A DNA stretch of 64,000 nucleotides from an uncultured Candidatus Saccharibacteria bacterium (GCA_964423445.1 CAYREQ010000001.1:65732-129731); one strand, 5' to 3'. Counted from the first letter of the stretch, positions 11,510 through 63,878 are shown. Notes: a model not told the origin generated them from the sequence alone. Program-made: numbers and translations.

Positions 11510-11839
11510 CTATTCTCCATACATTTCTTCCTTTTTCTTTTTTAATTCAGAAATTATATTGGGGTCTATAATCTTTGTAAATCTTTTTAAAATTTTTCCA
11601 TCTTTCTCTACTTCCCCCATAAACATCTCCAAGGGTCTAATATCGAACATTTTACCCATCTGGTATACATAGGCCTCATATATCGGCCTGTAGACCACAA
11701 ACTGGTCCTTTTGGTCTGTCTCATCATGTTTGCCTTCAGTGTGTAGGCCTACACCCAGGACTTCATATGCATAGTTATAAATAGAACCCGTAGGGTCGTG
11801 TTTGTAATGATAGTAGTATCCTTTTTCCGGAAATCCCAT
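11510..11839 (-). CDS. hypothetical protein, DUF1653-like
   Basis: 109 aa. Y-rich motifs YYHYK, YEVLGVGLHTE, VVYRPIY, RPLEMF resemble the DUF1653 family as I recall it. Confidence 0.55.
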   Translation of the reverse strand: MGFPEKGYYYHYKHDPTGSIYNYAYEVLGVGLHTEGKHDETDQKDQFVVYRPIYEAYVYQMGKMFDIRPLEMFMGEVEKDGKILKRFTKIIDPNIISELKKKKEEMYGE

Positions 11840-16191: not shown

Positions 16192-18933
16192 TTATTTATT
16201 TAGTACTGCACGAGTCAAAGGACCCACAATACCATCGATTTTTAGAGGCGGGTTTGCTTTTTGGAAAGCTCTGACGCAAGCGTCTGTCTTTGTTCCAAAT
16301 ATTCCATCAACAGCTCCACAATCATAACCAGCATCATTTAAGAATTTTTGAAGTTCATCTACTTCCCCATCCTTTGAGCCAAGCTTCATGTATTCTGTAA
16401 AGATAAACTTTTCAGCACCAAGAACTTGTCCTTTCTCAGTTGATGCACCCAAGACTCTACCATTGTTTGGAATAGAACCAGAAGTATTTTCTTCTCTTAC
16501 TTCTTCTTTAAATGTAGCAGAGATAGTGTGATCTGTAGTGACTTCATTGAAAGTATAAGTTGTTACAGGACCTACTGAAACTTCGCCATCAATAATTACA
16601 TTTTCTACATCAAAACCATTGTTTGCGTCTATTGAATATGTTCTACTTCCGCCATTTGCAACAGTAGTCTCTCCGACAGGGCTGACTGAACCGTTTGCCC
16701 CTGAAGAAGCAGTGATCTTGTGTGTCAGAGCTGCTATCTCAAATGAGCGAGTCACCTCTGGAGCTTCGTTGTAGTTTTCATTTCCTGCCTGACTTGCTGT
16801 TATTGTACAAGTACCTATAGCTAAGAGGTGTACTGTAGTGTTTCCTTCTCCTGTAAGTGAACAAGTACTACCCTCTTCTACTGAATAAACTACTTCTTCT
16901 TCTGAGCTCGCAGTAGCATTTAGGTCAAAATCAGAATCACCAATTGTCTTATCTTCAAGTTCATTGAAAGTAATAGTCTGGTCAGCTTTTGAAATTGTGA
17001 AAGTTCCTCCTACGAAATTAATTTCATAATTTGTATTTCCTAAAGTTCCTAGATTTATATCGTAAAGTCCTACATCCTCACCTGTGTCACGAGTAAGTGA
17101 TCCAGATAATTCATCACCTTCTAGTAGTGTGTTCTCTCCAGTTATTTGGTAAGTAAATTCTGGATCATCTTCACCGTATACTTTACCTTGTCCACCATCT
17201 ACTGTGACAGTTATAGGAAGTGGGTTGATAGCCAATGTAGCTGTGTCTTGTCCTGCGTAATCTGGGTCAGTAATAAGTGCTAGTACATCATACTCACCTA
17301 CGTTTTTTGGAAGATTAGTCAATCCGTTGTATAGGATTACATAACTCAATTCTTCGGGATCAGTACTTGCTTCTAGTGTGTGAGTGTCACCATCATAAGT
17401 CACATCCATCATTCCACTTAGTGTAATTGAAGCAGCTTCTGGAGAAATATCTGCGGTGACTTCATCTTCTACTGTTATGCTTGTAGTGACTAGGTTGTAA
17501 TTTGGAGCACTGATACCAGACATTGATATAGTACCTACAGTGATAGGTTTATTTGCTCCTGCGTCTGGGCTATCAAATAATGCGTCAGTGTATGATAGAA
17601 GAACATTGTCATCTCCTATTATATCTTCACTTCCCAATATTACAGTAGCATTTGCATTACCATCAAAAATTTTATTCACTCCAGTTACTGTGACATGTAA
17701 ATCTTTTTGAGTAATATCAATATTTTGAGAACCAGTAGCGTCATTATAATTTCCTGTGACATCAGTAAATGTCCAAGTTACAGTATTACTAGATACATTT
17801 GTGTAAGAAATTCCTAAATCAAGACCAGCTAGAGCTTCATCTAATATCCCTGTTGCTGTACCAGTGAGGCCATGAGAATTACCATCATAGACACCAGAAA
17901 AACCAGAAACATCTATGATTGCATTTGCTTTGGCTATTGAGAAATTTTCAGAGTCACTACTTCCGTTGTGGTTTGTATCTCCAGTAAAAGTATAATTTGC
18001 ATTAGCACTACCAACATTTGTATTGTTTGAGTAATTTAATACAGGAACTATAGAAAGTCCTCCAGCGCCAGTGACTTCTCCAGTACATGGTGTTTGAGCT
18101 CCTCCATTATAAGTAACACTTTCTGGGCAAGTAATTGTAGTAGTTGAATTTGCTTTATTGATTACAAAATTTCCAGCACTAGCATCTGATAGGTTGTTGT
18201 AATTTACTGTGTCTGTAGGAATAAAGTCTGCTGTGACTGCATAAGTTCCAGCGTTTGTAGGTACAGTACTTGAACCGTCGTATTTTATATCACTAACTAC
18301 ACCAGCAACAGAACCATTTACAGATGCAGATTGTGCAGAGCCAGTAAATGTCACAGGTGAATTTGATATTGAAAGTGTAGGGTTTGTTTTAATTATTGCT
18401 GAGTCTCCTTCAATTAACACATTGTCAACGCGGAAGTGTTCATCACTTGCGTTAGTTGAAACTCTAAACCTAATTAAAAAAGAAGTATTATTCATTCCTG
18501 AGTTAGTAATGGGTGCTTGTGTTGTCCATGAACTATCATTTCGCATGTCGTGAGTTGCTAGAGTAGTCCAACCAGAGCTACTACATGTTGCACCACTAGC
18601 TGACCTGAATTCTACGATTGCATCATCACTTACTTCTGGGCCAGAATCTGCGTCGCCTCTCCATTGATAAGAAAGTTTTACATTTGTATATCCGCTAGAA
18701 TTTATTGTTCTACATATATAACCACTATCTCCTAGCATTACTGCAAATCTGCCTCCATCTGGACTTGCACTATCATTTCCACTACTTGCTGCGCGTGCCT
18801 CAGAGTCACTTCCTGAATTTCCACCGTCACTCCATCCTGATACAGGAGTAACTGTAGATCCTGTGCCAAAGTTGTCTGAAAAAATAGTTGTAGCAGCAGA
18901 AGCTTCTCCTACATTAGACAATAGGAAACTCAT
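16192..18933 (-). CDS. large secreted surface protein with repeated Ig-like beta domains and C-terminal peptidoglycan-binding domain
   Basis: 913 aa. Signal-like N-terminus, S/T/N/G-rich repeated beta-domain segments (YDGNSH, TVTYNGGAQ-type). C-terminal PG_binding_1-like motif (LQKFLNDAGYDCGAVDGIFGTKTDACVRAFQ). Confidence 0.8.
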   Translation of the reverse strand: MSFLLSNVGEASAATTIFSDNFGTGSTVTPVSGWSDGGNSGSDSEARAASSGNDSASPDGGRFAVMLGDSGYICRTINSSGYTNVKLSYQWRGDADSGPEVSDDAIVEFRSASGATCSSSGWTTLATHDMRNDSSWTTQAPITNSGMNNTSFLIRFRVSTNASDEHFRVDNVLIEGDSAIIKTNPTLSISNSPVTFTGSAQSASVNGSVAGVVSDIKYDGSSTVPTNAGTYAVTADFIPTDTVNYNNLSDASAGNFVINKANSTTTITCPESVTYNGGAQTPCTGEVTGAGGLSIVPVLNYSNNTNVGSANANYTFTGDTNHNGSSDSENFSIAKANAIIDVSGFSGVYDGNSHGLTGTATGILDEALAGLDLGISYTNVSSNTVTWTFTDVTGNYNDATGSQNIDITQKDLHVTVTGVNKIFDGNANATVILGSEDIIGDDNVLLSYTDALFDSPDAGANKPITVGTISMSGISAPNYNLVTTSITVEDEVTADISPEAASITLSGMMDVTYDGDTHTLEASTDPEELSYVILYNGLTNLPKNVGEYDVLALITDPDYAGQDTATLAINPLPITVTVDGGQGKVYGEDDPEFTYQITGENTLLEGDELSGSLTRDTGEDVGLYDINLGTLGNTNYEINFVGGTFTISKADQTITFNELEDKTIGDSDFDLNATASSEEEVVYSVEEGSTCSLTGEGNTTVHLLAIGTCTITASQAGNENYNEAPEVTRSFEIAALTHKITASSGANGSVSPVGETTVANGGSRTYSIDANNGFDVENVIIDGEVSVGPVTTYTFNEVTTDHTISATFKEEVREENTSGSIPNNGRVLGASTEKGQVLGAEKFIFTEYMKLGSKDGEVDELQKFLNDAGYDCGAVDGIFGTKTDACVRAFQKANPPLKIDGIVGPLTRAVLNK

Positions 18934-31330: not shown

Positions 31331-32671
31331 ATGAAAAAAAAGAAAGGATTTATAGATGTAGTAGTAGGCCTCCAATGGGGTGATGAAGGTAAAGGTAAAA
31401 ATATAGATCAACTTCTTTCAAGTAATATTTATTCTGGCGTTGCTCGCTTTCAAGGCGGAGCAAATGCTGGGCATACTTTAAAATACAAAGACACTACATT
31501 TATCGGACACATAGTCCCCTCTGGATGCTTGCATAAAAATATAGATTTATACATAGGCAATGAAGTAGTAGTAGACGTGGTCTCTCTAGTGAAAGAAATC
31601 AAGCAATTAAAAGACCTAGGTTTTGATGTGACTTCTCGCCTTTTCATATCTAATAGAGCAAAACTCGTCTCATATATGCACCCTATTTTAGATGCTGCAG
31701 ATGAGCAGAAAAGAAATAAGTCTGGAAATAAGATAGGTACTACAAATAGAGGTATCGGCCCTGTGTATAGTGATGTAAGGGCTCGTAGAGCACTCCTTTT
31801 AGGAGATGTGCTTTTGCCAGATTTTAATAAAAAATTAGCCAAACTCGCAGAATTTCATATGAATACTTTGAGTATGTATGAAAAACATTATGATTTTAAA
31901 ATTGATCAAAATAAAATAAAAAAAACAAAAGCTGAGTGGGATAAGTCCATGAAAGAATTACAAAAATTAAATATCTGTGACGTATCTGCCTTGGTACAAA
32001 AAAAACTAAAAGAAGGAAAAAATATTTTAGCTGAAGGTGCACAAGCTGTGATGCTGGATATTGATTTCGGAGATTATCCAAATGTCACAAGTAGTAACAC
32101 CTTGCCAGCAAATGTCTGCCTCGGCCTGGGTGTGCCACATACTGCACTTCGTAATATCTATGGAGTCATCAAAGCTTATGTCACCAAAGTGGGTGGAGGT
32201 ACTTTCCCTTCTCGTATAAAAGATGAAAAGATAGAACAGCTTTTTCAAAAAGCTGGAAATGAATTTGGGGCTACTACAGGCCGACCACGTATGTGTGGCT
32301 GGCTAGACCTATTTGCTCTTCGTTATGCGATAGGACTATCTGGTGCAAATAAAATTTTTATAAATAAAGCTGACATCTGCTTGTCAGATAAAATAAAAGT
32401 GGTGACAGGTTATAAAGTAAAAAATAAACAAAAAGAAATAAAGTGTAAAGAATTTCCACTTTATTTGGATGAAGTGAGTAGTGTAATTACAGAAGACATA
32501 GCTGGTTGGGGCGATAAAAATTTTGCAGTATCTAAAAAAGTTAAAGTTTCTAAAGAACTTACTTCATATTTAAAATATATAAAAAATAAACTATCTGATT
32601 TGGATGTAAAAATAATTTCCGTAGGTACAGGTCCAGAGAGAGAACACTATTTCAATTGGGATAAAAACTAA
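31331..32671 (+). CDS. purA: adenylosuccinate synthetase
   Basis: 446 aa. QWGDEGKGK P-loop. GTTNRGIGP and GATTGRPR motifs. Confidence 0.95.
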   Translation: MKKKKGFIDVVVGLQWGDEGKGKNIDQLLSSNIYSGVARFQGGANAGHTLKYKDTTFIGHIVPSGCLHKNIDLYIGNEVVVDVVSLVKEIKQLKDLGFDVTSRLFISNRAKLVSYMHPILDAADEQKRNKSGNKIGTTNRGIGPVYSDVRARRALLLGDVLLPDFNKKLAKLAEFHMNTLSMYEKHYDFKIDQNKIKKTKAEWDKSMKELQKLNICDVSALVQKKLKEGKNILAEGAQAVMLDIDFGDYPNVTSSNTLPANVCLGLGVPHTALRNIYGVIKAYVTKVGGGTFPSRIKDEKIEQLFQKAGNEFGATTGRPRMCGWLDLFALRYAIGLSGANKIFINKADICLSDKIKVVTGYKVKNKQKEIKCKEFPLYLDEVSSVITEDIAGWGDKNFAVSKKVKVSKELTSYLKYIKNKLSDLDVKIISVGTGPEREHYFNWDKN

Positions 32672-32674
32672 AAA

Positions 32675-32708
32675 GTCGGCGTGTCCCAAAGGGATGCCGA
32701 CTTTTTTT
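32675..32708. terminator. bidirectional intrinsic terminator between purA and lipoprotein gene
   Basis: GTCGGCGTGTCCC-AAA-GGGATGCCGAC hairpin followed by T7. A-run on the other side. Confidence 0.7.
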
Positions 32709-32726
32709 GAGCGATATTGCTCGATG

Positions 32727-33245
32727 TCATTTGCTGACTTTTTGGAGGAACTCGTTGTAGCCGAAGCTCGTGGCCTCGAAATCTTTCCAAATTCCGTCCA
32801 GTCCGTAATTATCACGCGACACTTTTTCTTTCGATATATCATAATAGAAAAAGTGTTCTTGGTTTTTTATACCTTTGTAATAACCGTAAACGACAATTCG
32901 ACCATCTCCGCCGTCGCCTTTAGGTCCTTTGCCGAGTGCAAGGAAAGCGTGTCGGTTGCCACGGCTGTCAAAGAAGGTGTACTGCTTGGATCTACCTTCG
33001 TAGATGACGAAACCGTGCTTGACGATGTAGTCATTTAACTTGGCGAAGTTTTCGTTGCCGACCGGAATTTCCTTACTTCTGGAAGCTTCCAAGTTTGCTT
33101 TCTCTAAGTTCTGTTTTTTCTCGAACTCGGAAAGCTTGGGGGCGGTAGGGGTAGTGGCCGGTTTTTGTTCCGCCGAACTATTGCCACCACAACCAACCAA
33201 AACAACGACGAACGATACAACGATTACAAACATTAAATTTCTCAC
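32727..33245 (-). CDS. lipoprotein of unknown function (compositionally atypical, higher GC)
   Basis: Lipobox LVGC|GG. SD AGGAG 8 nt before the GTG at 33245 (the track start at 33263 is TTG; the ATG at 33233 is an alternative). GC visibly higher than neighbours. Confidence 0.65.
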   Translation of the reverse strand: MRNLMFVIVVSFVVVLVGCGGNSSAEQKPATTPTAPKLSEFEKKQNLEKANLEASRSKEIPVGNENFAKLNDYIVKHGFVIYEGRSKQYTFFDSRGNRHAFLALGKGPKGDGGDGRIVVYGYYKGIKNQEHFFYYDISKEKVSRDNYGLDGIWKDFEATSFGYNEFLQKVSK

Positions 33246-33336
33246 TTTATTTTCTCCTCTCAAATAGAATGAACTCGCCTCATAACAGGCAAATTCTTTT
33301 TAGAATTAGAGCCAGTTATGTAGCTATCTACTTGAC

Positions 33337-33365
33337 ATAATAGTATATTTATGTTCTTTTGTCAA
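33337..33365 (-). promoter_or_regulatory. canonical sigma70 promoter for lipoprotein gene
   Basis: Minus strand TTGACA(33365-33360)-17 nt-TATTAT(33342-33337). Starts 6 nt after the purD stop. Confidence 0.45.
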
Positions 33366-33370
33366 ATATA

Positions 33371-36663: not shown

Positions 36664-37449
36664 TTACTTAAAATATTTAACTGCGTTTCTAAAAATTTGT
36701 AAGCCTTCACCAACCTTACTCTTCTTCTTGTTTTTCTGCCACAAAGGACTTTGCTGTGGAAACATTGCGCGCTCTGGGTGTGGCATAAGCCCTAAAACTC
36801 TTCCATTATATGCCAAAACCCCAGCAATGTCATAATCTGAGCCATTTGGATTTTTTTCAAGATTTTGGAATTTACAAATTTCTCCTTTCGTATAAGTAAA
36901 AGCAATTTCTCCAAGTTTTTTCATTTGTTCGTATTTATTTTTATCAATTACAAAATGTCCCTCACCGTGTGCTATGGGTACTGATAATTTTTTTATTCCA
37001 GAGAGCCAAGGGCTTTTGCCACTAACTTCCAAGTCCACCCAGCGATCTATATATTTTCCATTTTTATTAAAGGTTAAAGCTCCGGGTAATATCCCTAAGT
37101 TTGTTATTATTTGAAAACCATTACATATACCTATCACCAGAGTATCTCGTGTCAAAAACAGAGCAAGCTCTTTTGATAGGTGATTTTTAAATTTATTAGC
37201 ATATGCTTTTCCACTACCTGTATCGTCGCCATAAGAAAATCCTCCAGGAAAAGCCATGATGTCATAATCCTCTAGCATTTTTGGTTTAGCAATCAAGTCG
37301 TTGATGTGTACGATGTCGGCAACTATAGATTTTTTTTCTTCTCTTCCCGCCCACTCAAAAGCAAACTTTGTCTCTTCTTCGCAGTTGAGTCCATAACCAG
37401 ACAATACTATTACTTTTATTTTATTTTTGTTTTTCATTTTTTGTATCAC
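36664..37449 (-). CDS. purQ: FGAM synthase glutaminase subunit PurQ
   Basis: 261 aa class I GATase (IKVIVLSGYGLNCE, catalytic GICNGFQ, HPE). Confidence 0.85.
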   Translation of the reverse strand: MIQKMKNKNKIKVIVLSGYGLNCEEETKFAFEWAGREEKKSIVADIVHINDLIAKPKMLEDYDIMAFPGGFSYGDDTGSGKAYANKFKNHLSKELALFLTRDTLVIGICNGFQIITNLGILPGALTFNKNGKYIDRWVDLEVSGKSPWLSGIKKLSVPIAHGEGHFVIDKNKYEQMKKLGEIAFTYTKGEICKFQNLEKNPNGSDYDIAGVLAYNGRVLGLMPHPERAMFPQQSPLWQKNKKKSKVGEGLQIFRNAVKYFK

Positions 37450-38122
37450 TATATGTAAAATCTTTTGTATCTTCGTTTACTTTTGGTCTTACGAAATATA
37501 ATCTCCCATTTTTATTATCAAAATATACATCATCTTCTCCGTAACTGTATTTTTTTGGACCATTAATAACTACAGGTTCAAATCCCAAAATTGAATTTGT
37601 TTCTGTAGACAATAATTTTATTGATTCCACAGAAGCTTCTTTAGAGAAATCATCATCAAAGTAATCTCCACCTACTATGACAGCATCTATTGTACCTCGA
37701 ATACATTTTTCTTTGATTTGATAAAGTGCTTTATCAAATTCAGCTTTAAATGAGCTTGATAATTGATGGCTTTTGTCTTTTTTAAAAGCTATAAAGGCAA
37801 ATGGAGCTTGATGGGTTAAAAAAGAAATATTCTCTCCAGTTTCTTTATCTGTACCTTTGACGACTAATCCTGTGCACCTACTAAACCCCTCTGAAAATTT
37901 ATCTCCATCACTTACATTTGATATTATATATCCAGGATAAGAAGACCATTTTACATTTTCCGGATTTTTTAGGTTAAATTTATGAGGAGGAGTTCCCTCT
38001 AGAAATTCTTCATCTCCTTCTAAAAAATCTTTTCTAGCACTTATACAAACCATAATAGGCTTAGCATCTTTATTTAAATGCTCAAATTTTAAACTATTAA
38101 CTTTTGGTATGGATTCTTGCAT
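37421..38122 (-). CDS. conserved hypothetical protein, paralog B of a pair flanking purL
   Basis: 233 aa, cytoplasmic. Shares CTGL[IV]V.G.DK.TG.NISF..HQ.PF, GTIDAVIVGG, LGFEP.VINGPK and RLYF.RPKVN blocks with the 41115..41855 product. Overlaps the purQ start by 29 nt. Confidence 0.7.
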   Translation of the reverse strand: MQESIPKVNSLKFEHLNKDAKPIMVCISARKDFLEGDEEFLEGTPPHKFNLKNPENVKWSSYPGYIISNVSDGDKFSEGFSRCTGLVVKGTDKETGENISFLTHQAPFAFIAFKKDKSHQLSSSFKAEFDKALYQIKEKCIRGTIDAVIVGGDYFDDDFSKEASVESIKLLSTETNSILGFEPVVINGPKKYSYGEDDVYFDNKNGRLYFVRPKVNEDTKDFTYSDTKNEKQK

Positions 38123-41114: not shown

Positions 41115-41855
41115 TTAACCCCACTTTTCTTTTTGATTTTCAATATCGCTAGGAATAAAATCTCCTGTATTTTGATTTACTTTTGGTCTCAAAAAATATA
41201 GCCTCCTGTTTTCATTATCGAAATATATGTCATCACCTATAATCCTAGAAGTTTTTGGTCCATTTATAACTATCGGCTCAAATCCTAATGACCCCGAAGT
41301 CTCTTTACCAAGTAGATCAATTGATGTTTTATATGTTTCCATTACTTGAAAATTATCAAGTTCTGTATCTGTATAAAAAATACCACCAACTATCACAGCA
41401 TCTATTGTACCTTCTCTACATTTTTCCTTTATTTCCTTAATTTTTTCTTTCAAATCATTTTTAAATTTTTCTTTATCATCTAGTAAGAATTTAAAAGGGT
41501 CTTGGTGACTAACGAAAGAAATATTTTTACCAGTAGTTTTATCAATTCCTGAAACAATTAATCCAGTACATCTATGGAATTTTTTTGAAAATTTATCAGC
41601 GTCATTTATCTCAGATATTACGTATGTTTTTTCTCCAGCGTTTAAGAATTTATCTTGAGCAAGCTTATCTTTTGAACTATCTATGTCTATAAATTGTGCA
41701 TTTTTTAATTTTAAATCTATCTCATATTCTGGTGCATTTTTAGGATATGGGTCTTTTATGCCAAAATCTTCAAAAGAACCCACACAAGCAATTATAGGTT
41801 TTACTCCTTCGATTAAGTGTTTGTTTTTATTTTCAAAATTAAAATTTTCGTTCAT
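41115..41855 (-). CDS. conserved hypothetical protein, paralog A of a pair flanking purL
   Basis: 246 aa. Same conserved blocks as 37421..38122 (HRCTGLIVSGIDKTTGKNISFVSHQDPF; GTIDAVIVGG; LGFEPIVINGPK; RLYFLRPKVN). First gene of the purL operon. Confidence 0.7.
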   Translation of the reverse strand: MNENFNFENKNKHLIEGVKPIIACVGSFEDFGIKDPYPKNAPEYEIDLKLKNAQFIDIDSSKDKLAQDKFLNAGEKTYVISEINDADKFSKKFHRCTGLIVSGIDKTTGKNISFVSHQDPFKFLLDDKEKFKNDLKEKIKEIKEKCREGTIDAVIVGGIFYTDTELDNFQVMETYKTSIDLLGKETSGSLGFEPIVINGPKTSRIIGDDIYFDNENRRLYFLRPKVNQNTGDFIPSDIENQKEKWG

Positions 41856-56551: not shown

Positions 56552-56578
56552 AATAGTTTTTGTCATATAAATTAAAAA

Positions 56579-56607
56579 AGCCGGTAGCATTTCTGCGTAC
56601 CGGCTTT
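56579..56607. terminator. intrinsic terminator (strong on minus strand) between topA and 56630..57343 gene
   Basis: AGCCGGTA-12 nt loop-TACCGGCT. T6 run on the minus strand. Weak T-tail on the plus strand. Confidence 0.6.
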
Positions 56608-56629: not shown

Positions 56630-57343
56630 TTATCCGACAAAGCGCGGGCGTTCGGCTTTTTCTTTTGGCGGATTAATCATCTTTACCTCGCCGTTTTTTT
56701 TGATTTGAAAGGTGCTGTCGTCCCCTTTCTCATTTATTAGACGCATTAAGAGTTTTGAATCTTCGGCGTCAAAAATGATTGCACCCTTGGAGTTTTTAAA
56801 TCCATGAGTGTAGTTTGATATTGGAAGTTTGAACTCCTCGGGAGATAAAATGCCTCCAAATTTTTGTATTACCGCCATGGCTTCGGGAGTAAAGTATACA
56901 CGGCGGTCGATTTCATCGACGAGCAAATTAAAATTATTTATTGCTCGCCACTCTATCTCGGCAGATACCTGCTCAAGAGCAGAATCTTCTGACCACTTGT
57001 CCCAATCGACGACGACCGCCGTAGCTGAAACATTGTGAGTCATTTTCCCCGATTGATAAGACCGAAAAGTGTCGGACCATATAACTTCGTACTTGCCTTT
57101 GTACGATACTTTCCTTTCAGGTATTTTGAGATGTACCTTTCCTCCACCATCGAGTTCTACTTTAATAGTGATATCTCGCCGGACGACAGACCCAGAGAGA
57201 TTTTCGTCTAGGTTGATAGTGCATACATCCGTACCGACGTTTAAGATTATCTTTGTCGGCATGGGTGAAAGTGTTTCTTGGGCAAGTGTCTTTACGCCAA
57301 ACAAAGACACAAAAAACATAGCGACTAAAAGCATTTTTTTCAT
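56630..57343 (-). CDS. secreted hypothetical protein (compositionally atypical, higher GC)
   Basis: Signal peptide MKKMLLVAMFFVSLFGVKTLAQE. The track start at 57373 is TTG and the ATG at 57343 is preferred. GGAAG SD-like motif upstream. No family recognised. Confidence 0.6.
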   Translation of the reverse strand: MKKMLLVAMFFVSLFGVKTLAQETLSPMPTKIILNVGTDVCTINLDENLSGSVVRRDITIKVELDGGGKVHLKIPERKVSYKGKYEVIWSDTFRSYQSGKMTHNVSATAVVVDWDKWSEDSALEQVSAEIEWRAINNFNLLVDEIDRRVYFTPEAMAVIQKFGGILSPEEFKLPISNYTHGFKNSKGAIIFDAEDSKLLMRLINEKGDDSTFQIKKNGEVKMINPPKEKAERPRFVG

Positions 57344-57487
57344 TTCATTTCTTCCTTTTTCAAGTTTTGTCAAAAAGCTCAGATCGAGAGCTCGGGCTAG
57401 TTCAAGACAATAATGTATATTTTATTTAGAATTGTCAATATTAAATTTAAAATTCTCAGACTTGATTTGTTGTGATATAATCATTTT

Positions 57488-58960
57488 ATGTCTATGGAAG
57501 TCAAAGAAATACTAGATCTCATGCCTGAGAGCATGACGAAGAAAGACGAAGAATTGATAATAAAAGCATATAATTATGCTAAAAAAGCTCACGAAGGACA
57601 AAAGAGAATGAGTGGAGAGCCATATTTTGTCCATGTATTTGAGACTGCAAAAACTCTAGCTACTCTCAGTATGGATGTCCAGACCATAGCTGCTGGCTTG
57701 CTTCACGACACTATCGAAGATACAGAAGTCACCGAAGAAGAACTAGAAAAAGAATTTGGTGAAAATATTGTATTTTTAGTAAAAGGAGTCACCAAGCTAG
57801 CGACTTTAAAATATAGTGGTTATGAGAGACATGTAGAAAGTCTACGAAAATTTTTCATGGCCATGGCAAATGATTTACGTGTGGTCATCATAAAATTAGC
57901 AGACAGACTTCACAATTTAAATACTTTGCAACATATTCGTGAAGATAAAAAGAAACGTATCGCCTTAGAGTCTATCAGTGTCTATGCCCCTCTCGCGAAT
58001 CGTCTTGGTATGGGAAAATTGAAAGGAGAAATAGAAGACGCTGCTTTTCCTTATGCTTATCCAAAAGAGTATAAACAAATGCAAGAAATTTTGGATGAAA
58101 AAAGAGAAGCATATGAAAAAAATCTTGAGATAGTGAGAACTGAATTAAAAAAAGAACTTGATAAAAATAATATCAAATGTGCCGAGCTCGACTATAGAGT
58201 AAAACACAAATATAGTCTATATAAAAAACTTTTGAAATATGACATGGACATAGATAAAATCTATGACATAGTCGCTCTGCGTGTAGTCGTAGACAATGTA
58301 GAAGAATGTTATAGAGTGCTCGGAGTAATACATTCAATTTGGAATCCCCTTCCTGGCAGAATTAAAGATTATATTGCATTACCAAAGCCAAACGGCTATC
58401 GCTCTATACATACCACGGTGCTCACAGGATTGGGTGGTATTGCAGAAATCCAAATCAAAACAAAAGAAATGCACAATGAAGCTACTTATGGTATCGCTGC
58501 ACACTTTGCATACAAGGAAGGTAAGAAAAAGAAAAAAAATGCAATGAGTGAGTTGAAATTTGATTGGATTGAAGATTTGAAAAATTTAAAATATTCCCCA
58601 GATGAACCAAAGAAATTTATTGAACACCTAAAGACAGACTTTTTCAATGATAGAATTTTCGTTTTTACACCAAAGGGTGACGTAGTAGACCTGCCAGAAG
58701 ATTCCACTCCGGTAGATTTTGCTTATGCCATACACTCTGACATAGGAGACCATATTTCTGGAGTAAAAATAAATGATAAAATGTCACAGATTTTTTCCAA
58801 ATTAAAAAATGGAGATATTGTAAATATAATAATAAACAAGAACTCTCGTCCATCAAATAAATGGCTAGAGTATGCGAAGACTGCAGTAGCTAGAAAACAT
58901 ATAAAGCACTATCTTGAAAATAATACTCTCTTAAATAGACTCAAGTCTTTTGGGAAATAA
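57488..58960 (+). CDS. rel: short RelA/SpoT homolog (HD hydrolase, synthetase, TGS; no ACT domain)
   Basis: 490 aa. HD motif (LLHDTIEDT), synthetase motifs (RVV.D...GYRSIHTTV), TGS-like C-terminus (TPKGDVVDLP). Confidence 0.85.
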   Translation: MSMEVKEILDLMPESMTKKDEELIIKAYNYAKKAHEGQKRMSGEPYFVHVFETAKTLATLSMDVQTIAAGLLHDTIEDTEVTEEELEKEFGENIVFLVKGVTKLATLKYSGYERHVESLRKFFMAMANDLRVVIIKLADRLHNLNTLQHIREDKKKRIALESISVYAPLANRLGMGKLKGEIEDAAFPYAYPKEYKQMQEILDEKREAYEKNLEIVRTELKKELDKNNIKCAELDYRVKHKYSLYKKLLKYDMDIDKIYDIVALRVVVDNVEECYRVLGVIHSIWNPLPGRIKDYIALPKPNGYRSIHTTVLTGLGGIAEIQIKTKEMHNEATYGIAAHFAYKEGKKKKKNAMSELKFDWIEDLKNLKYSPDEPKKFIEHLKTDFFNDRIFVFTPKGDVVDLPEDSTPVDFAYAIHSDIGDHISGVKINDKMSQIFSKLKNGDIVNIIINKNSRPSNKWLEYAKTAVARKHIKHYLENNTLLNRLKSFGK

Positions 58961-61796: not shown

Positions 61797-62660
61797 ATGA
61801 AAATAAAACCAAAAGTTATAGTTATATTAGGTGAGACTGCTACAGGCAAGAGCTCTCTATCAGTAAAATTGGCCAAAAAGATAGGAGGTGAGGTTATTTC
61901 TGCTGACTCAAGGCAAGTATATAAAGATCTAGATATTGGTACTGGTAAAATTACACAAAAAGAGATGAGGGGCGTACCGCATTATTTATTAGACGTAGCT
62001 AATCCTAAAAAGAAATTTACTGTAACTGAATATCAAAAAAAAGCTGTTTACGCTATAGCTGATATATGTAAACGGGGCAAAGTACCGATAATCTGTGGAG
62101 GAACAGGTTTTTATATTGATGCTATTACTAAAGGTGTGGTTTTCCCTGAGGTACCACCAAATTTGAAATTGAGAAAAATTTTAGAGAAAAAAGATAATAT
62201 TGATCTACTTAAGATTTTAAAAAAGATTGACCCTAGACGAGTAAAAAATATTGATATAAAAAATAAAGTGAGATTGGTGAGAGCCATAGAGATAGCTAAA
62301 GCTCTGGGAAAAGTGCCAGAGATTAAAGAGAAAAAGCCACAATATGAATTTATAAAAATCGGACTATCTCTACCTATAGATATACTAGAAAAAAAAGTTA
62401 CCAAAAGAGTAAAACAAATGTTTGAAGATGGCCTTTTAAAAGAAATACAAAAATTAAAGAAAAAAGGAGTAAGTGAAAAGAGGTTGAAAGAATTGGGCTT
62501 TGAATATTACAAGCCGACACAAGAAACAGTGGTGCGTGAGACTATAAAATACGCAAAGAGACAAATGACTTGGTTTAAAAGAGACAAAGAAATAAAATGG
62601 TTCTCTCCTGTTGAGGGTACAAAGATAAATGAGTATATAAAAAATAAACTTGATTTTTAG
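61797..62660 (+). CDS. miaA: tRNA dimethylallyltransferase
   Basis: 287 aa. P-loop GETATGKS and SADSRQVYKDLDIGTGK motif. Confidence 0.9.
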   Translation: MKIKPKVIVILGETATGKSSLSVKLAKKIGGEVISADSRQVYKDLDIGTGKITQKEMRGVPHYLLDVANPKKKFTVTEYQKKAVYAIADICKRGKVPIICGGTGFYIDAITKGVVFPEVPPNLKLRKILEKKDNIDLLKILKKIDPRRVKNIDIKNKVRLVRAIEIAKALGKVPEIKEKKPQYEFIKIGLSLPIDILEKKVTKRVKQMFEDGLLKEIQKLKKKGVSEKRLKELGFEYYKPTQETVVRETIKYAKRQMTWFKRDKEIKWFSPVEGTKINEYIKNKLDF

Positions 62661-62732
62661 TGTATAAATGGTATAAACAAGCTTGAATACTCATCATTTT
62701 GGTGAGTAAATTTGTTATTTTGAGGAAAAAAT

Positions 62733-63200
62733 ATGGAAAATTTTAAAGTTTGCGCTCAGCACGGAAGTGCAGGGCTTAGTGCTTTGTTCCCTGATTTTAA
62801 AGGGGTGATTAAAGTAGACCCTTCGGTGTCTGCTTTTCTGCAGTTGAATGAAACCTCGACGTACGAAGTAAAGTCTGACTTCTACGTGAATTTTGAGGTT
62901 TTTCCAAAAGGAGGAAAGTTCTTTGAACTTTTAGCTCCATGGCCGACGCTTCCAAGGCGTGAAAAGTTTCTCGCGATGCTTACCTATCTCGGCACCCCAG
63001 AAGGATTCAAAGCTTTGTCTCTTCAGGAAGAACAAGACGAAGCAAACGTCCTTCTCGGCTACTTCAAAAGTGGCGCCGAGGATATTGTGTTCCATGTGGA
63101 GCACGAGCATGAAGCTGGAAAGGGTCCGGAGATTCATCTCCATGGCTCAAAAGCAAATCGTGAAGAAGATAGCATCGTCACTGTCTTTCATATAAATTAA
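62733..63200 (+). CDS. hypothetical His-rich protein (compositionally atypical, higher GC)
   Basis: 155 aa. GAGGA SD 7 nt upstream. HVEHEHEAGKGPEIHLH segment. No family recognised. Confidence 0.55.
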   Translation: MENFKVCAQHGSAGLSALFPDFKGVIKVDPSVSAFLQLNETSTYEVKSDFYVNFEVFPKGGKFFELLAPWPTLPRREKFLAMLTYLGTPEGFKALSLQEEQDEANVLLGYFKSGAEDIVFHVEHEHEAGKGPEIHLHGSKANREEDSIVTVFHIN

Positions 63201-63243
63201 TTTTTTACCCGCCAGCACCGGTTTTAAAAATAGTATCAAAATA

Positions 63244-63276
63244 CCCCAACACAATTTTACTGTGCTGGGGTAAAAT
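63244..63276. terminator. imperfect hairpin between convergent genes
   Basis: CCCCAACACA-attttac-TGTGCTGGGG (one mismatch) followed by a T-rich stretch. Confidence 0.3.
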
Positions 63277-63281
63277 TGTTT

Positions 63282-63878
63282 TTAGTGCTCATTTTTACTC
63301 CTTTTAGATAGGTGATAAATACCCGGCAATAAAGATACTAGAACAATTATGATAACTACATATAAAAGATAATCTTGAATTTGTGGGAAAGATTGACCCA
63401 AGAAATATCCACCAAATACAAATACAGAAGACCATATAATAGAACCCAGAAAACTATATTTTAGAAAATCTAAATAATTCATCCTCACCATTCCAGCTAC
63501 TATTGGTAAAAAAGTACGTACAATAGGAACAAATCTAGAAAGTATCATTGCAGAGAGTCCATGTTTTTCTAAAAATTTATGAGCTTCGTCTGTGTATTTC
63601 TTTTTAAAAATTTTTCTAAATAGTGAATAGTTGTATAAAAAATCTAACTTAGTTCCGATATAATACCCTACTATTCCCCCCAGAAAAGCAGCTACAAAAA
63701 CCAAGAATGCGAGCAGAATGACACTTAAGCCTAGTTGGTGTGCTAGTAGTCCAGCTGTGAAAAGTAGACTATCTCCTGGAAGTGGGAAAAATACTCCAGA
63801 CTCAAGAAATACAATTATGAGTATGCCTATATAGCCATAATTTGTGATGAGATAAGTCAGGTCAAAAAGATTATGCAT
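63282..63878 (-). CDS. dedA: DedA-family membrane protein
   Basis: 198 aa. DedA/SNARE-associated motif pattern (GxxxLxFxxGxxxH...FxPxVRTF). Confidence 0.8.
   Translation of the reverse strand: MHNLFDLTYLITNYGYIGILIIVFLESGVFFPLPGDSLLFTAGLLAHQLGLSVILLAFLVFVAAFLGGIVGYYIGTKLDFLYNYSLFRKIFKKKYTDEAHKFLEKHGLSAMILSRFVPIVRTFLPIVAGMVRMNYLDFLKYSFLGSIIWSSVFVFGGYFLGQSFPQIQDYLLYVVIIIVLVSLLPGIYHLSKRSKNEH

Follow-up and report, generated by a model that had tools for sequence, protein, structure and literature searches.

The gene analysed here encodes a predicted lipoprotein and lies between purA and purD in a 64,000-nucleotide stretch of DNA from an uncultured bacterium (GCA_964423445.1, CAYREQ010000001.1:65732-129731), referred to below as the window. 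The source is labelled Candidatus Saccharibacteria; the window is a Nomurabacteria/Paceibacterota (Patescibacteria) genome with an overall GC content of 34.8%. Pfam scans place a complete de novo purine and GMP/AMP cluster at 21389-41855. One side contains purB, purC, purM, purE, purK, purH and guaA, then guaB and purA reading rightwards, and purA converges on purD; the other side, reading leftwards, contains purD, purN, purF, purQ, an open reading frame (ORF) of 233 amino acids (aa), purL and an ORF of 246 aa. The lipoprotein gene occupies exactly the convergent purA/purD junction (Table 1). The 38 species-level relative loci compared with the window were retrieved with the purA product as query (66-86% aa identity) and come from metagenome-assembled genomes (MAGs) of Candidatus Nomurabacteria, Paceibacterota and other Patescibacteria; these and further loci are denoted by L numbers.

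The lipoprotein cassette and its product

Table 1. Coordinates and properties of the lipoprotein cassette (site 1) and of the two other GC-rich genes of the window (sites 2 and 3). GC1, GC2 and GC3 are GC contents at the three codon positions; CDS, coding sequence; SD, Shine-Dalgarno sequence; UTR, untranslated region; MFE, minimum free energy.
Feature	Position	Strand	Description
Whole accessory cassette	32672..33370	-	From purA stop (32671) to purD stop (33371); terminator, small hairpin, CDS, SD, structured 5'UTR, promoter
Sigma-70-type promoter	33337..33365	-	TTGACA-17-TATTAT; 11/12 positions matched
5'UTR stem-loop	33277..33324	-	~50 nt; MFE stem
SD	33254..33261	-	GAGAGGAG; 8 nt upstream of the GTG start at 33245; anti-SD pairing -11.6 kcal/mol
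Lipoprotein CDS	32727..33245	-	172 aa, GTG start; predicted signal peptide, lipobox, Pro/Thr/Ala-rich linker, helix, compact alpha/beta domain
Lipoprotein ORF	32727-33263	-	GC 0.443, GC1 0.48, GC2 0.34, GC3 0.508; GC3 z +6.5; codon log-likelihood z -4.8
Small hairpin	32706..32724	-	UCGAGCAAUAUCGCUCAAA; directly after the lipoprotein stop codon
Bidirectional intrinsic terminator	32669..32704	.	AAAAAGUCGGC...GCCGACUUUUU; common to purA (+) and the lipoprotein gene (-)
Site-2 gene, secreted 237-aa protein	56630..57343	-	Between topA and relA; SD GGAAG
Site-2 ORF	56630-57373	-	GC 0.415, GC3 0.419; GC3 z +4.2; codon log-likelihood z -3.1
Site-2 promoter	57410-57438		TTGACA-17-CATTAT
Site-2 terminator	~56577-56607		Bidirectional
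Site-3 gene, 155-aa cytoplasmic orphan	62733..63200	+	Between miaA and a VTT/DedA-family gene; SD GAGGA
Site-3 ORF	62733-63200	+	GC 0.447, GC3 0.429; GC3 z +4.5; codon log-likelihood z -3.2
Site-3 promoter	62650-62677		TTGATT-16-TATAAA
Site-3 terminator	~63243-63285

A preliminary description of the window had stated that the lipoprotein gene splits the purine cluster, that it has its own consensus-like promoter, and that it shares with the genes at sites 2 and 3 SD motifs which almost all core genes lack. All of this is borne out. The promoter is the best of 10 sites detected at 31-35 kb and is kept in L036, L039 and L041. Between its -35 hexamer and the purD stop codon there are 5 nt and no terminator. 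The three genes had also been described as monocistronic units flanked by terminators; they are indeed leadered and monocistronic with strong 3' terminators, but not terminated on both sides. In L036 (~11776-11811), the purD stop codon is mutated and purD runs on for nine codons through the -35 region of the cassette promoter.

Transcription from this near-consensus promoter would give a leadered mRNA, the 5'UTR of which would fold as a conserved stem-loop. Of the 19 pairs in a consensus structure from three sequences only (the window, L036 and L041), 6 are changed on both sides, for example CAUAAC/GUUAUG versus CGUAAC/GUUACG. The same stem-loop precedes two unrelated CDSs (L036, ~11700-11760; L041, ~1880-1950). 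It may be an mRNA-stabilising or regulatory element. A cmscan of Rfam with an E-value limit of 5 gave nothing on the 5'UTR or the 3' element and two chance-level matches elsewhere in the region.

No credible start codon in the window has a stronger SD than the lipoprotein gene, whose SD would recruit ribosomes in a host with SD-less or leaderless core genes. Anti-SD pairing of -6 kcal/mol or stronger occurs at the first start codon of 3% of the ORFs, compared with 11% of random positions; the host's core genes are essentially SD-less. The motifs at sites 2 (-6.2 kcal/mol) and 3 (-5.6 kcal/mol) are weaker and SD-like.

At the 3' end, the small hairpin and the strong intrinsic terminator would close the unit, and the latter would terminate purA as well. 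The hairpin is identical in L039 (19/19), has one mismatch in 19 in L036, carries a compensatory double change in L041 (GAGC/GCUC to GGAC/GUCC) and is shortened in L042; within the 0.7 Mb searched it is restricted to the window and these cassette loci. A common mobilisation motif flanking all three GC-rich genes was considered and rejected, the small hairpin being present at site 1 only. A single exact-pattern match to the 3' hairpin in viral contigs falls within a 1346-aa giant-virus ORF and was judged to be chance. The terminator folds at -26 kcal/mol (z = -6.0; 0 of 200 shuffles fold as well) and is kept in L039, L041, L042 and L036. The 3' terminators at sites 2 and 3 have z = -5.4 and z = -2.7.

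Support for the GTG start comes from the alignment of the homologues, which share this N-terminus, M(K/R)xLMF. The N-terminal sequence MRNLMFVIVVSFVVVLVG-C19 includes the lipobox L16-V17-G18-C19, which fits the pattern [LVI][ASTVI][GAS]C at the end of a signal peptide and is kept in the proteins P0001, P0002 and P0004. The signal peptide and the lipobox LVGC predict Sec export, lipidation at Cys19 and cleavage by signal peptidase II; a flexible linker of ~20-40 residues would then tether the lipoprotein to the outer face of the cytoplasmic membrane, and the compact alpha/beta domain would be displayed on the cell surface. An AlphaFold (AF2) model built from 83 sequences (predicted local distance difference test score, pLDDT, 86.5) consists of the signal peptide, a disordered linker, a long helix, a second helix, a five- to six-stranded antiparallel sheet and a C-terminal helix.

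The family profile picks up 107 clusters at 50% identity, mostly of ~180 aa. A regular expression finds a lipobox in 58 of 110 proteins (the family representatives and the four direct homologues of the query), i.e. about half. F67, I74, G78, D93, H99, I117 and I137 are nearly invariant, and the conserved D93 and H99 are placed in a beta-hairpin. The domain is 63-67% identical within the cassette clade and 53-54% identical to the next relatives; thus it is under real constraint, and much of the divergence is located in the linker. Family members stand alone among housekeeping genes, beside priA, gyrA/holB, ychF, rpsB-tsf or polA, with no conserved partner.

The search of 5.8 billion proteins returned only four homologues of the lipoprotein (38-60% identity), all on low-GC contigs resembling the candidate phyla radiation (CPR). 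The preliminary description had proposed a search for donor lineages; no donor lineage or vector with close homologues came to light. Pfam, NCBIfam, PHROGs and PADLOC gave no meaningful match for the proteins of the three GC-rich genes or for 83 family members; the lipoprotein itself had none in Pfam or NCBIfam, and the family members had scattered single ones at most. The best PHROGs match (E = 0.006) covers only the N-terminal signal peptide and linker, PADLOC has nothing significant, and a PDB sequence search with the lipoprotein reaches 0.046 at best. Two assignments were dropped: i) membership of the PG1828 family, since the matches are confined to the signal peptide (residues 1-30) and stay below the cut-off; and ii) a Bacteroidota origin, prompted by the many "SC" lipoboxes in the family, since the contexts in L044, L053 and L056 look like low-GC, small-genome CPR-type contigs. 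The product appears to be a real protein belonging to an unnamed family of mostly predicted lipoproteins.

Codon usage of the GC-rich genes

The three genes had been described as visibly richer in GC than surroundings of 30-33%. They are all compositional outliers (GC 0.415-0.447), but the background is ~35%. GC, GC3 and codon statistics, proposed as a check, agree with their being atypical: with the window's codon usage as reference, they have the three worst log-likelihoods per codon among 60 ORFs (GC3 z +4.2 to +6.5), and the lipoprotein gene is the most atypical. GC3 of the remaining 56 ORFs is 0.250 ± 0.040, with a maximum of 0.361.

GC1 and GC2 of the lipoprotein gene are ordinary, so its deviation is almost entirely at third positions and synonymous. 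The shift is largest for C: two-fold pyrimidine-ending codons have C/(C+T) of 0.66 versus 0.27, and two-fold purine-ending codons have G/(A+G) of 0.32 versus 0.20. Calculated from Phe, Tyr, Ile and Asn codons, a Sharp-type S index is 1.9 for the lipoprotein gene and ~1.0, in the same direction but from 30 codons only, for the window's two ribosomal-protein genes (those of L27 and L9). GC-ending codons of the lipoprotein gene are commoner at conserved or invariant residues (Mantel-Haenszel odds ratio, OR, 1.9, p = 3e-4, stratified by gene and amino acid), an Akashi-type test that is suggestive only.

High GC is not intrinsic to the lipoprotein family, because GC3 of the distant homologues (L050, L045 and L053) equals or falls below that of their hosts. 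Among 514 ORFs at the relatives' loci, 19 are GC3 outliers; 37% of them, versus 10%, have signal peptides or transmembrane segments, and 32%, versus 7%, have strong SDs. On this enrichment, the lineage seems to have a recurrent class of small envelope genes that are rich in GC3 and bear SDs. Small membrane or lipoprotein genes with GC3 far above that of the genome and strong SDs are found, for example, among L001-L038 at L008 4651-5265, L002 4700-5236 and L007 4608-4937. Nothing directly relevant was found in the literature on SD usage or GC-rich lipoprotein islands in Patescibacteria.

Two further ORFs of the window differ from this pattern. The DUF1653 gene at 11510-11839 (-) is a fourth GC3 outlier (0.41, z about 4), overlooked in the preliminary description, with no SD and a nearly normal codon log-likelihood. 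The 913-aa ORF at 16192-18933 (-), with a signal-like hydrophobic N-terminus, has the opposite bias, GC2 being 0.47 but GC3 0.19; if it is exported, GC3-rich codons are therefore not common to all exported proteins.

Occurrence in relatives and origin of the cassette

Neither tblastn nor a family hidden Markov model (HMM) run on six-frame translations found the lipoprotein gene in any of the 38 relatives. Among the 30 relatives with both purA and purD, the gap between the two is shorter than 100 bp in 18 and 186-325 bp in 5; the other 7 have 0.5-2 kb of unrelated DNA with ORFs of widely varying composition, such as 577 aa at GC 0.49 (L035), 196 aa at GC 0.42 (L007) and a 189-aa lipoprotein at GC 0.27 (L028). 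This survey of gaps and inserts makes the junction a recurrent landing place with an empty ancestral state, and the ancestral junction is a few bp long. To this extent the gene is an insertion, as had been claimed.

In the purA tree, the window clusters with L039, L034 and L036. L034 is the closest empty-site relative, with the purA and purD stop codons ~2 nt apart; within the clade, it alone has lost the slot entirely. L039 has a homologue at the same site and in the same orientation, the flanks being 85-87% and the lipoprotein 53% identical at the aa level. Absence from relatives, which had been put forward as a check, thus holds for the 38 loci, the empty site of L034 included, but not for L039. 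L036 has the same promoter, 5'UTR stem-loop, post-stop hairpin and terminator around an unrelated CDS of 101 aa with two transmembrane segments; a degraded copy of the lipoprotein gene was considered there and rejected, since the family HMM found no remnant in six-frame translations. Two loci hold the unit in other arrangements. In L042, the gene and the 3' element directly follow purA, but the orientation is reversed and the promoter differs, and in L041 the CDS, 5'UTR and 3' element are found in another context, beside a frameshifted serine recombinase pseudogene.

The reading preferred here, with a probability of roughly 0.55, is that a self-contained, monocistronic surface-lipoprotein cassette was gained at purA/purD by the ancestor of a small Nomurabacteria clade and that its GC3 has been maintained by codon selection. 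Once gained at the convergent junction, the cassette would have been kept, diversified, swapped or lost, with one loss (L034) and one CDS replacement (L036). Its age is indicated by the comparison with L039, in which dN (nonsynonymous divergence) and dS (synonymous divergence) are 0.079 and 1.72 for purA, and dN is 0.38 with saturated dS for the lipoprotein gene; flank dS is 0.9-1.7 overall. Because the dS of the L039 flanks is saturated, the slot predates the divergence that randomised synonymous sites. The GC3 of the L039 copy is nevertheless undiminished (0.526), and the four cassette copies have GC3 of 0.44-0.53 against 0.23-0.35 for their hosts' genes. Persistence across synonymous saturation means that the bias is not un-ameliorated donor composition but is maintained, the probable cause being selection for codons ending in C in an mRNA that is expressed at a high level.

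Several points weigh against this reading. High expression of the lipoprotein gene is itself predicted from sequence signals only, the 5'UTR structure is based on just three sequences, and translational selection is expected to be weak in CPR bacteria. The genes for L27 and L9 have an overall GC3 of just 0.24-0.30, and their expression-linked codon bias falls short of the level of the lipoprotein gene. C is also enriched at its four-fold sites (0.38 versus 0.13). Within the folded domain alone, the conserved-site enrichment drops to OR 1.5 (p = 0.06). It is not found in the site-2 gene (OR 1.0), and in the site-3 gene C and G are equally frequent at third positions (C3 = G3), so that one mechanism may not fit all three genes. 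Foldseek with the lipoprotein model gave no fold match in PDB (E >= 0.3) or BFVD (E >= 0.046). L039, L041 and L042 are each represented by a short contig from a single sample, and the relatives' genomes are MAGs.

The preliminary description had taken all three genes for recent acquisitions, which would make the GC-rich codons and the SDs un-ameliorated traits of a GC-richer, SD-using donor. Their strong compositional and codon deviation, the restriction of SDs to them, the absence of the lipoprotein gene from the 38 relatives, the unrelated junction inserts of varied GC, the serine recombinase adjoining the L041 copy, and the enrichment of strong SDs and signal peptides among the relatives' GC3 outliers would all fit such an origin. 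It is nevertheless unlikely, because the L039 copy occupies the same site with saturated flanks and because L036 has the same slot ends. By our estimate from dS, a two-state amelioration model would need an ancestral GC3 near or above 1, impossible for the deeper comparisons. The elements around the CDS (promoter, UTR and terminator) are conserved, and their AT-rich sequence is like that of the host. The window's site is free of direct repeats, tRNA genes and recombinase genes, with no recombinase within 10 kb, and neither tblastn of phage and plasmid collections nor an IMG/VR scan found homologues of the lipoprotein. The cassette reads as a genuine accessory add-on that is old rather than recent.

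Site 2 leads in the same direction. Its homologues are syntenic in L046, L047, L048 and L049, which represent three distinct relatives (L046 and L047 encode the same protein), between flanks that are 89-99% identical with dS of 0.64-0.74. GC3 is still 0.44-0.49 in the relatives and 0.42-0.49 over all copies. The dN of the gene is 0.106 versus 0.008-0.035 in the flanking genes, i.e. 3-13 times higher. The site-2 gene is thus old, syntenic and fast-evolving, and not a recent insertion. At site 3, the protein's only match among the 5.8 billion proteins is its own sequence, consistent with an orphan gene or a recent gain.

Exchange from a cassette pool is quite unlikely as the main explanation, though parts of the evidence suit it. 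Here the slot ends would be fixed and the CDSs swapped by homologous recombination from a pool with a composition of its own, and GC-biased gene conversion might add to GC3. L036 carries the same ends round a different CDS, and the 3' element and 5'UTR are far better conserved than the CDS, the small hairpin matching at 19/19 between the window and L039 against 72% for the 3' element with the 3' half of the CDS. The flipped arrangement in L042, the displaced unit in L041 and inserts of at least 186 bp at the junction in 12 of the 30 relatives can be read in the same way. Only one swapped CDS is seen, however, its L036 occupant is not GC-rich, and neither a recombinase nor an att-like site lies in the window. 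Gene conversion would be expected to raise G3 as much as C3, whereas the observed C3 is far above G3, and reported gene-conversion effects are much below +0.25. A bolder version, that Nomurabacteria keep fixed "expression slots" at convergent core-gene junctions (promoter, 5'UTR, SD and double-hairpin 3' element) into which alternative genes for abundant surface or secreted proteins are swapped, is speculative and decidedly doubtful.

Descent from a mobile element that left behind in the chromosome a phage-type moron, or a lipoprotein for defence or superinfection exclusion, is improbable: the cassette is, as morons such as lambda bor and lom and those of HK97 are, an independent promoter-gene-terminator unit of atypical composition between genes that abut in relatives, its product is a small envelope lipoprotein reminiscent of lambda Bor and of the exclusion lipoproteins Llp, Cor and Ltp, and the L041 recombinase is of the PHROG integrase/invertase type, but it lies in a chromosomal purine cluster of a Patescibacteria genome, with purine genes for 10 kb on each side and no prophage genes nearby, has persisted and diverged for long within its clade, resembles neither Bor nor any other moron product in sequence or fold, gives no significant match in PHROGs or PADLOC and has no counterpart in phage genomes or IMG/VR, and its distant family members stand alone among housekeeping genes.

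Known systems, neighbouring genes and wider meaning

Three other systems invite comparison with the old, codon-selected cassette favoured above. In its strong promoter, structured and presumably stable mRNA ends, strong terminator, preferred-codon bias and lipobox-processed product it resembles E. coli lpp, although the likeness in expression is one of sequence signals. There is no homology; Lpp is a 58-residue coiled coil whereas the cassette encodes a 172-aa protein with an alpha/beta domain on a linker, and the gene is accessory rather than core. As in genomic islets and integration hot spots, the same junction holds different unrelated genes and is empty in most relatives, but the element is a single gene of ~700 bp, has no integrase, tRNA gene or repeats, and in one relative its ends are conserved while the CDS differs. 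Integron cassettes are likewise single-gene units, exchangeable at a fixed site, with a hairpin-forming 3' element. They are usually promoterless, unlike the lipoprotein cassette, and there is no IntI and no attI or attC with R/L core architecture in the present case; the 3' element is a hairpin of 4-7 bp plus a terminator, not attC. The cassette fits best among accessory envelope genes in hot spots between core genes, and it encodes a member of an undescribed lipoprotein family.

The purine cluster at 21389-41855 is syntenic in ~30 Nomurabacteria-type genomes. CPR bacteria are usually described as being without nucleotide biosynthesis, which makes the cluster notable. It contains two paralogous ORFs, ~42% identical, at 37421-38122 (-; 233 aa) and 41115-41855 (-; 246 aa), with GC of 0.295 and 0.283, very low GC3 of 0.14 and 0.17, and no Pfam match. 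In L034, only the 246-aa paralogue is present and the purQ-purL gap is empty. The 233-aa ORF is another accessory insertion in the purine cluster, this one AT-rich.

The region upstream of the site-2 gene is a divergent promoter region shared with relA. The relA/spoT gene (57488-58960) is apparently leaderless, an extended -10 element (TGnTATAAT) ending 6 nt before its ATG, in keeping with core genes generally lacking SDs. L046, with flanks that are 96-99% identical, has at 1687-2277, between the site-2 gene and topA, an extra gene for a 196-aa secreted protein with a TTGACA-17-TATTAT promoter of its own and a raised GC of 0.40; the window lacks this gene.

Patescibacteria, which are ultra-small and for the most part uncultured, are believed to live in attachment to other cells. 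The likely interface with hosts and phages is their surface proteins, of which to our knowledge almost none has been characterised. The locus does not overturn current understanding. What it adds is an unnamed lipoprotein family of 107 clusters, with a confidently predicted fold that has no detectable counterpart in PDB or in the predicted viral structures of BFVD, and a caution for calls of horizontal gene transfer by composition in AT-rich, reduced genomes, as the atypical GC and codons at this site do not mark a recent transfer. There are also signs of two regimes of translation initiation, one for SD-less core genes and one for SD-bearing accessory envelope genes. Should the doubtful notion of expression slots prove true, this leadered, SD-dependent, C3-rich class of genes would give an episymbiont a system dedicated to cell-surface variation.

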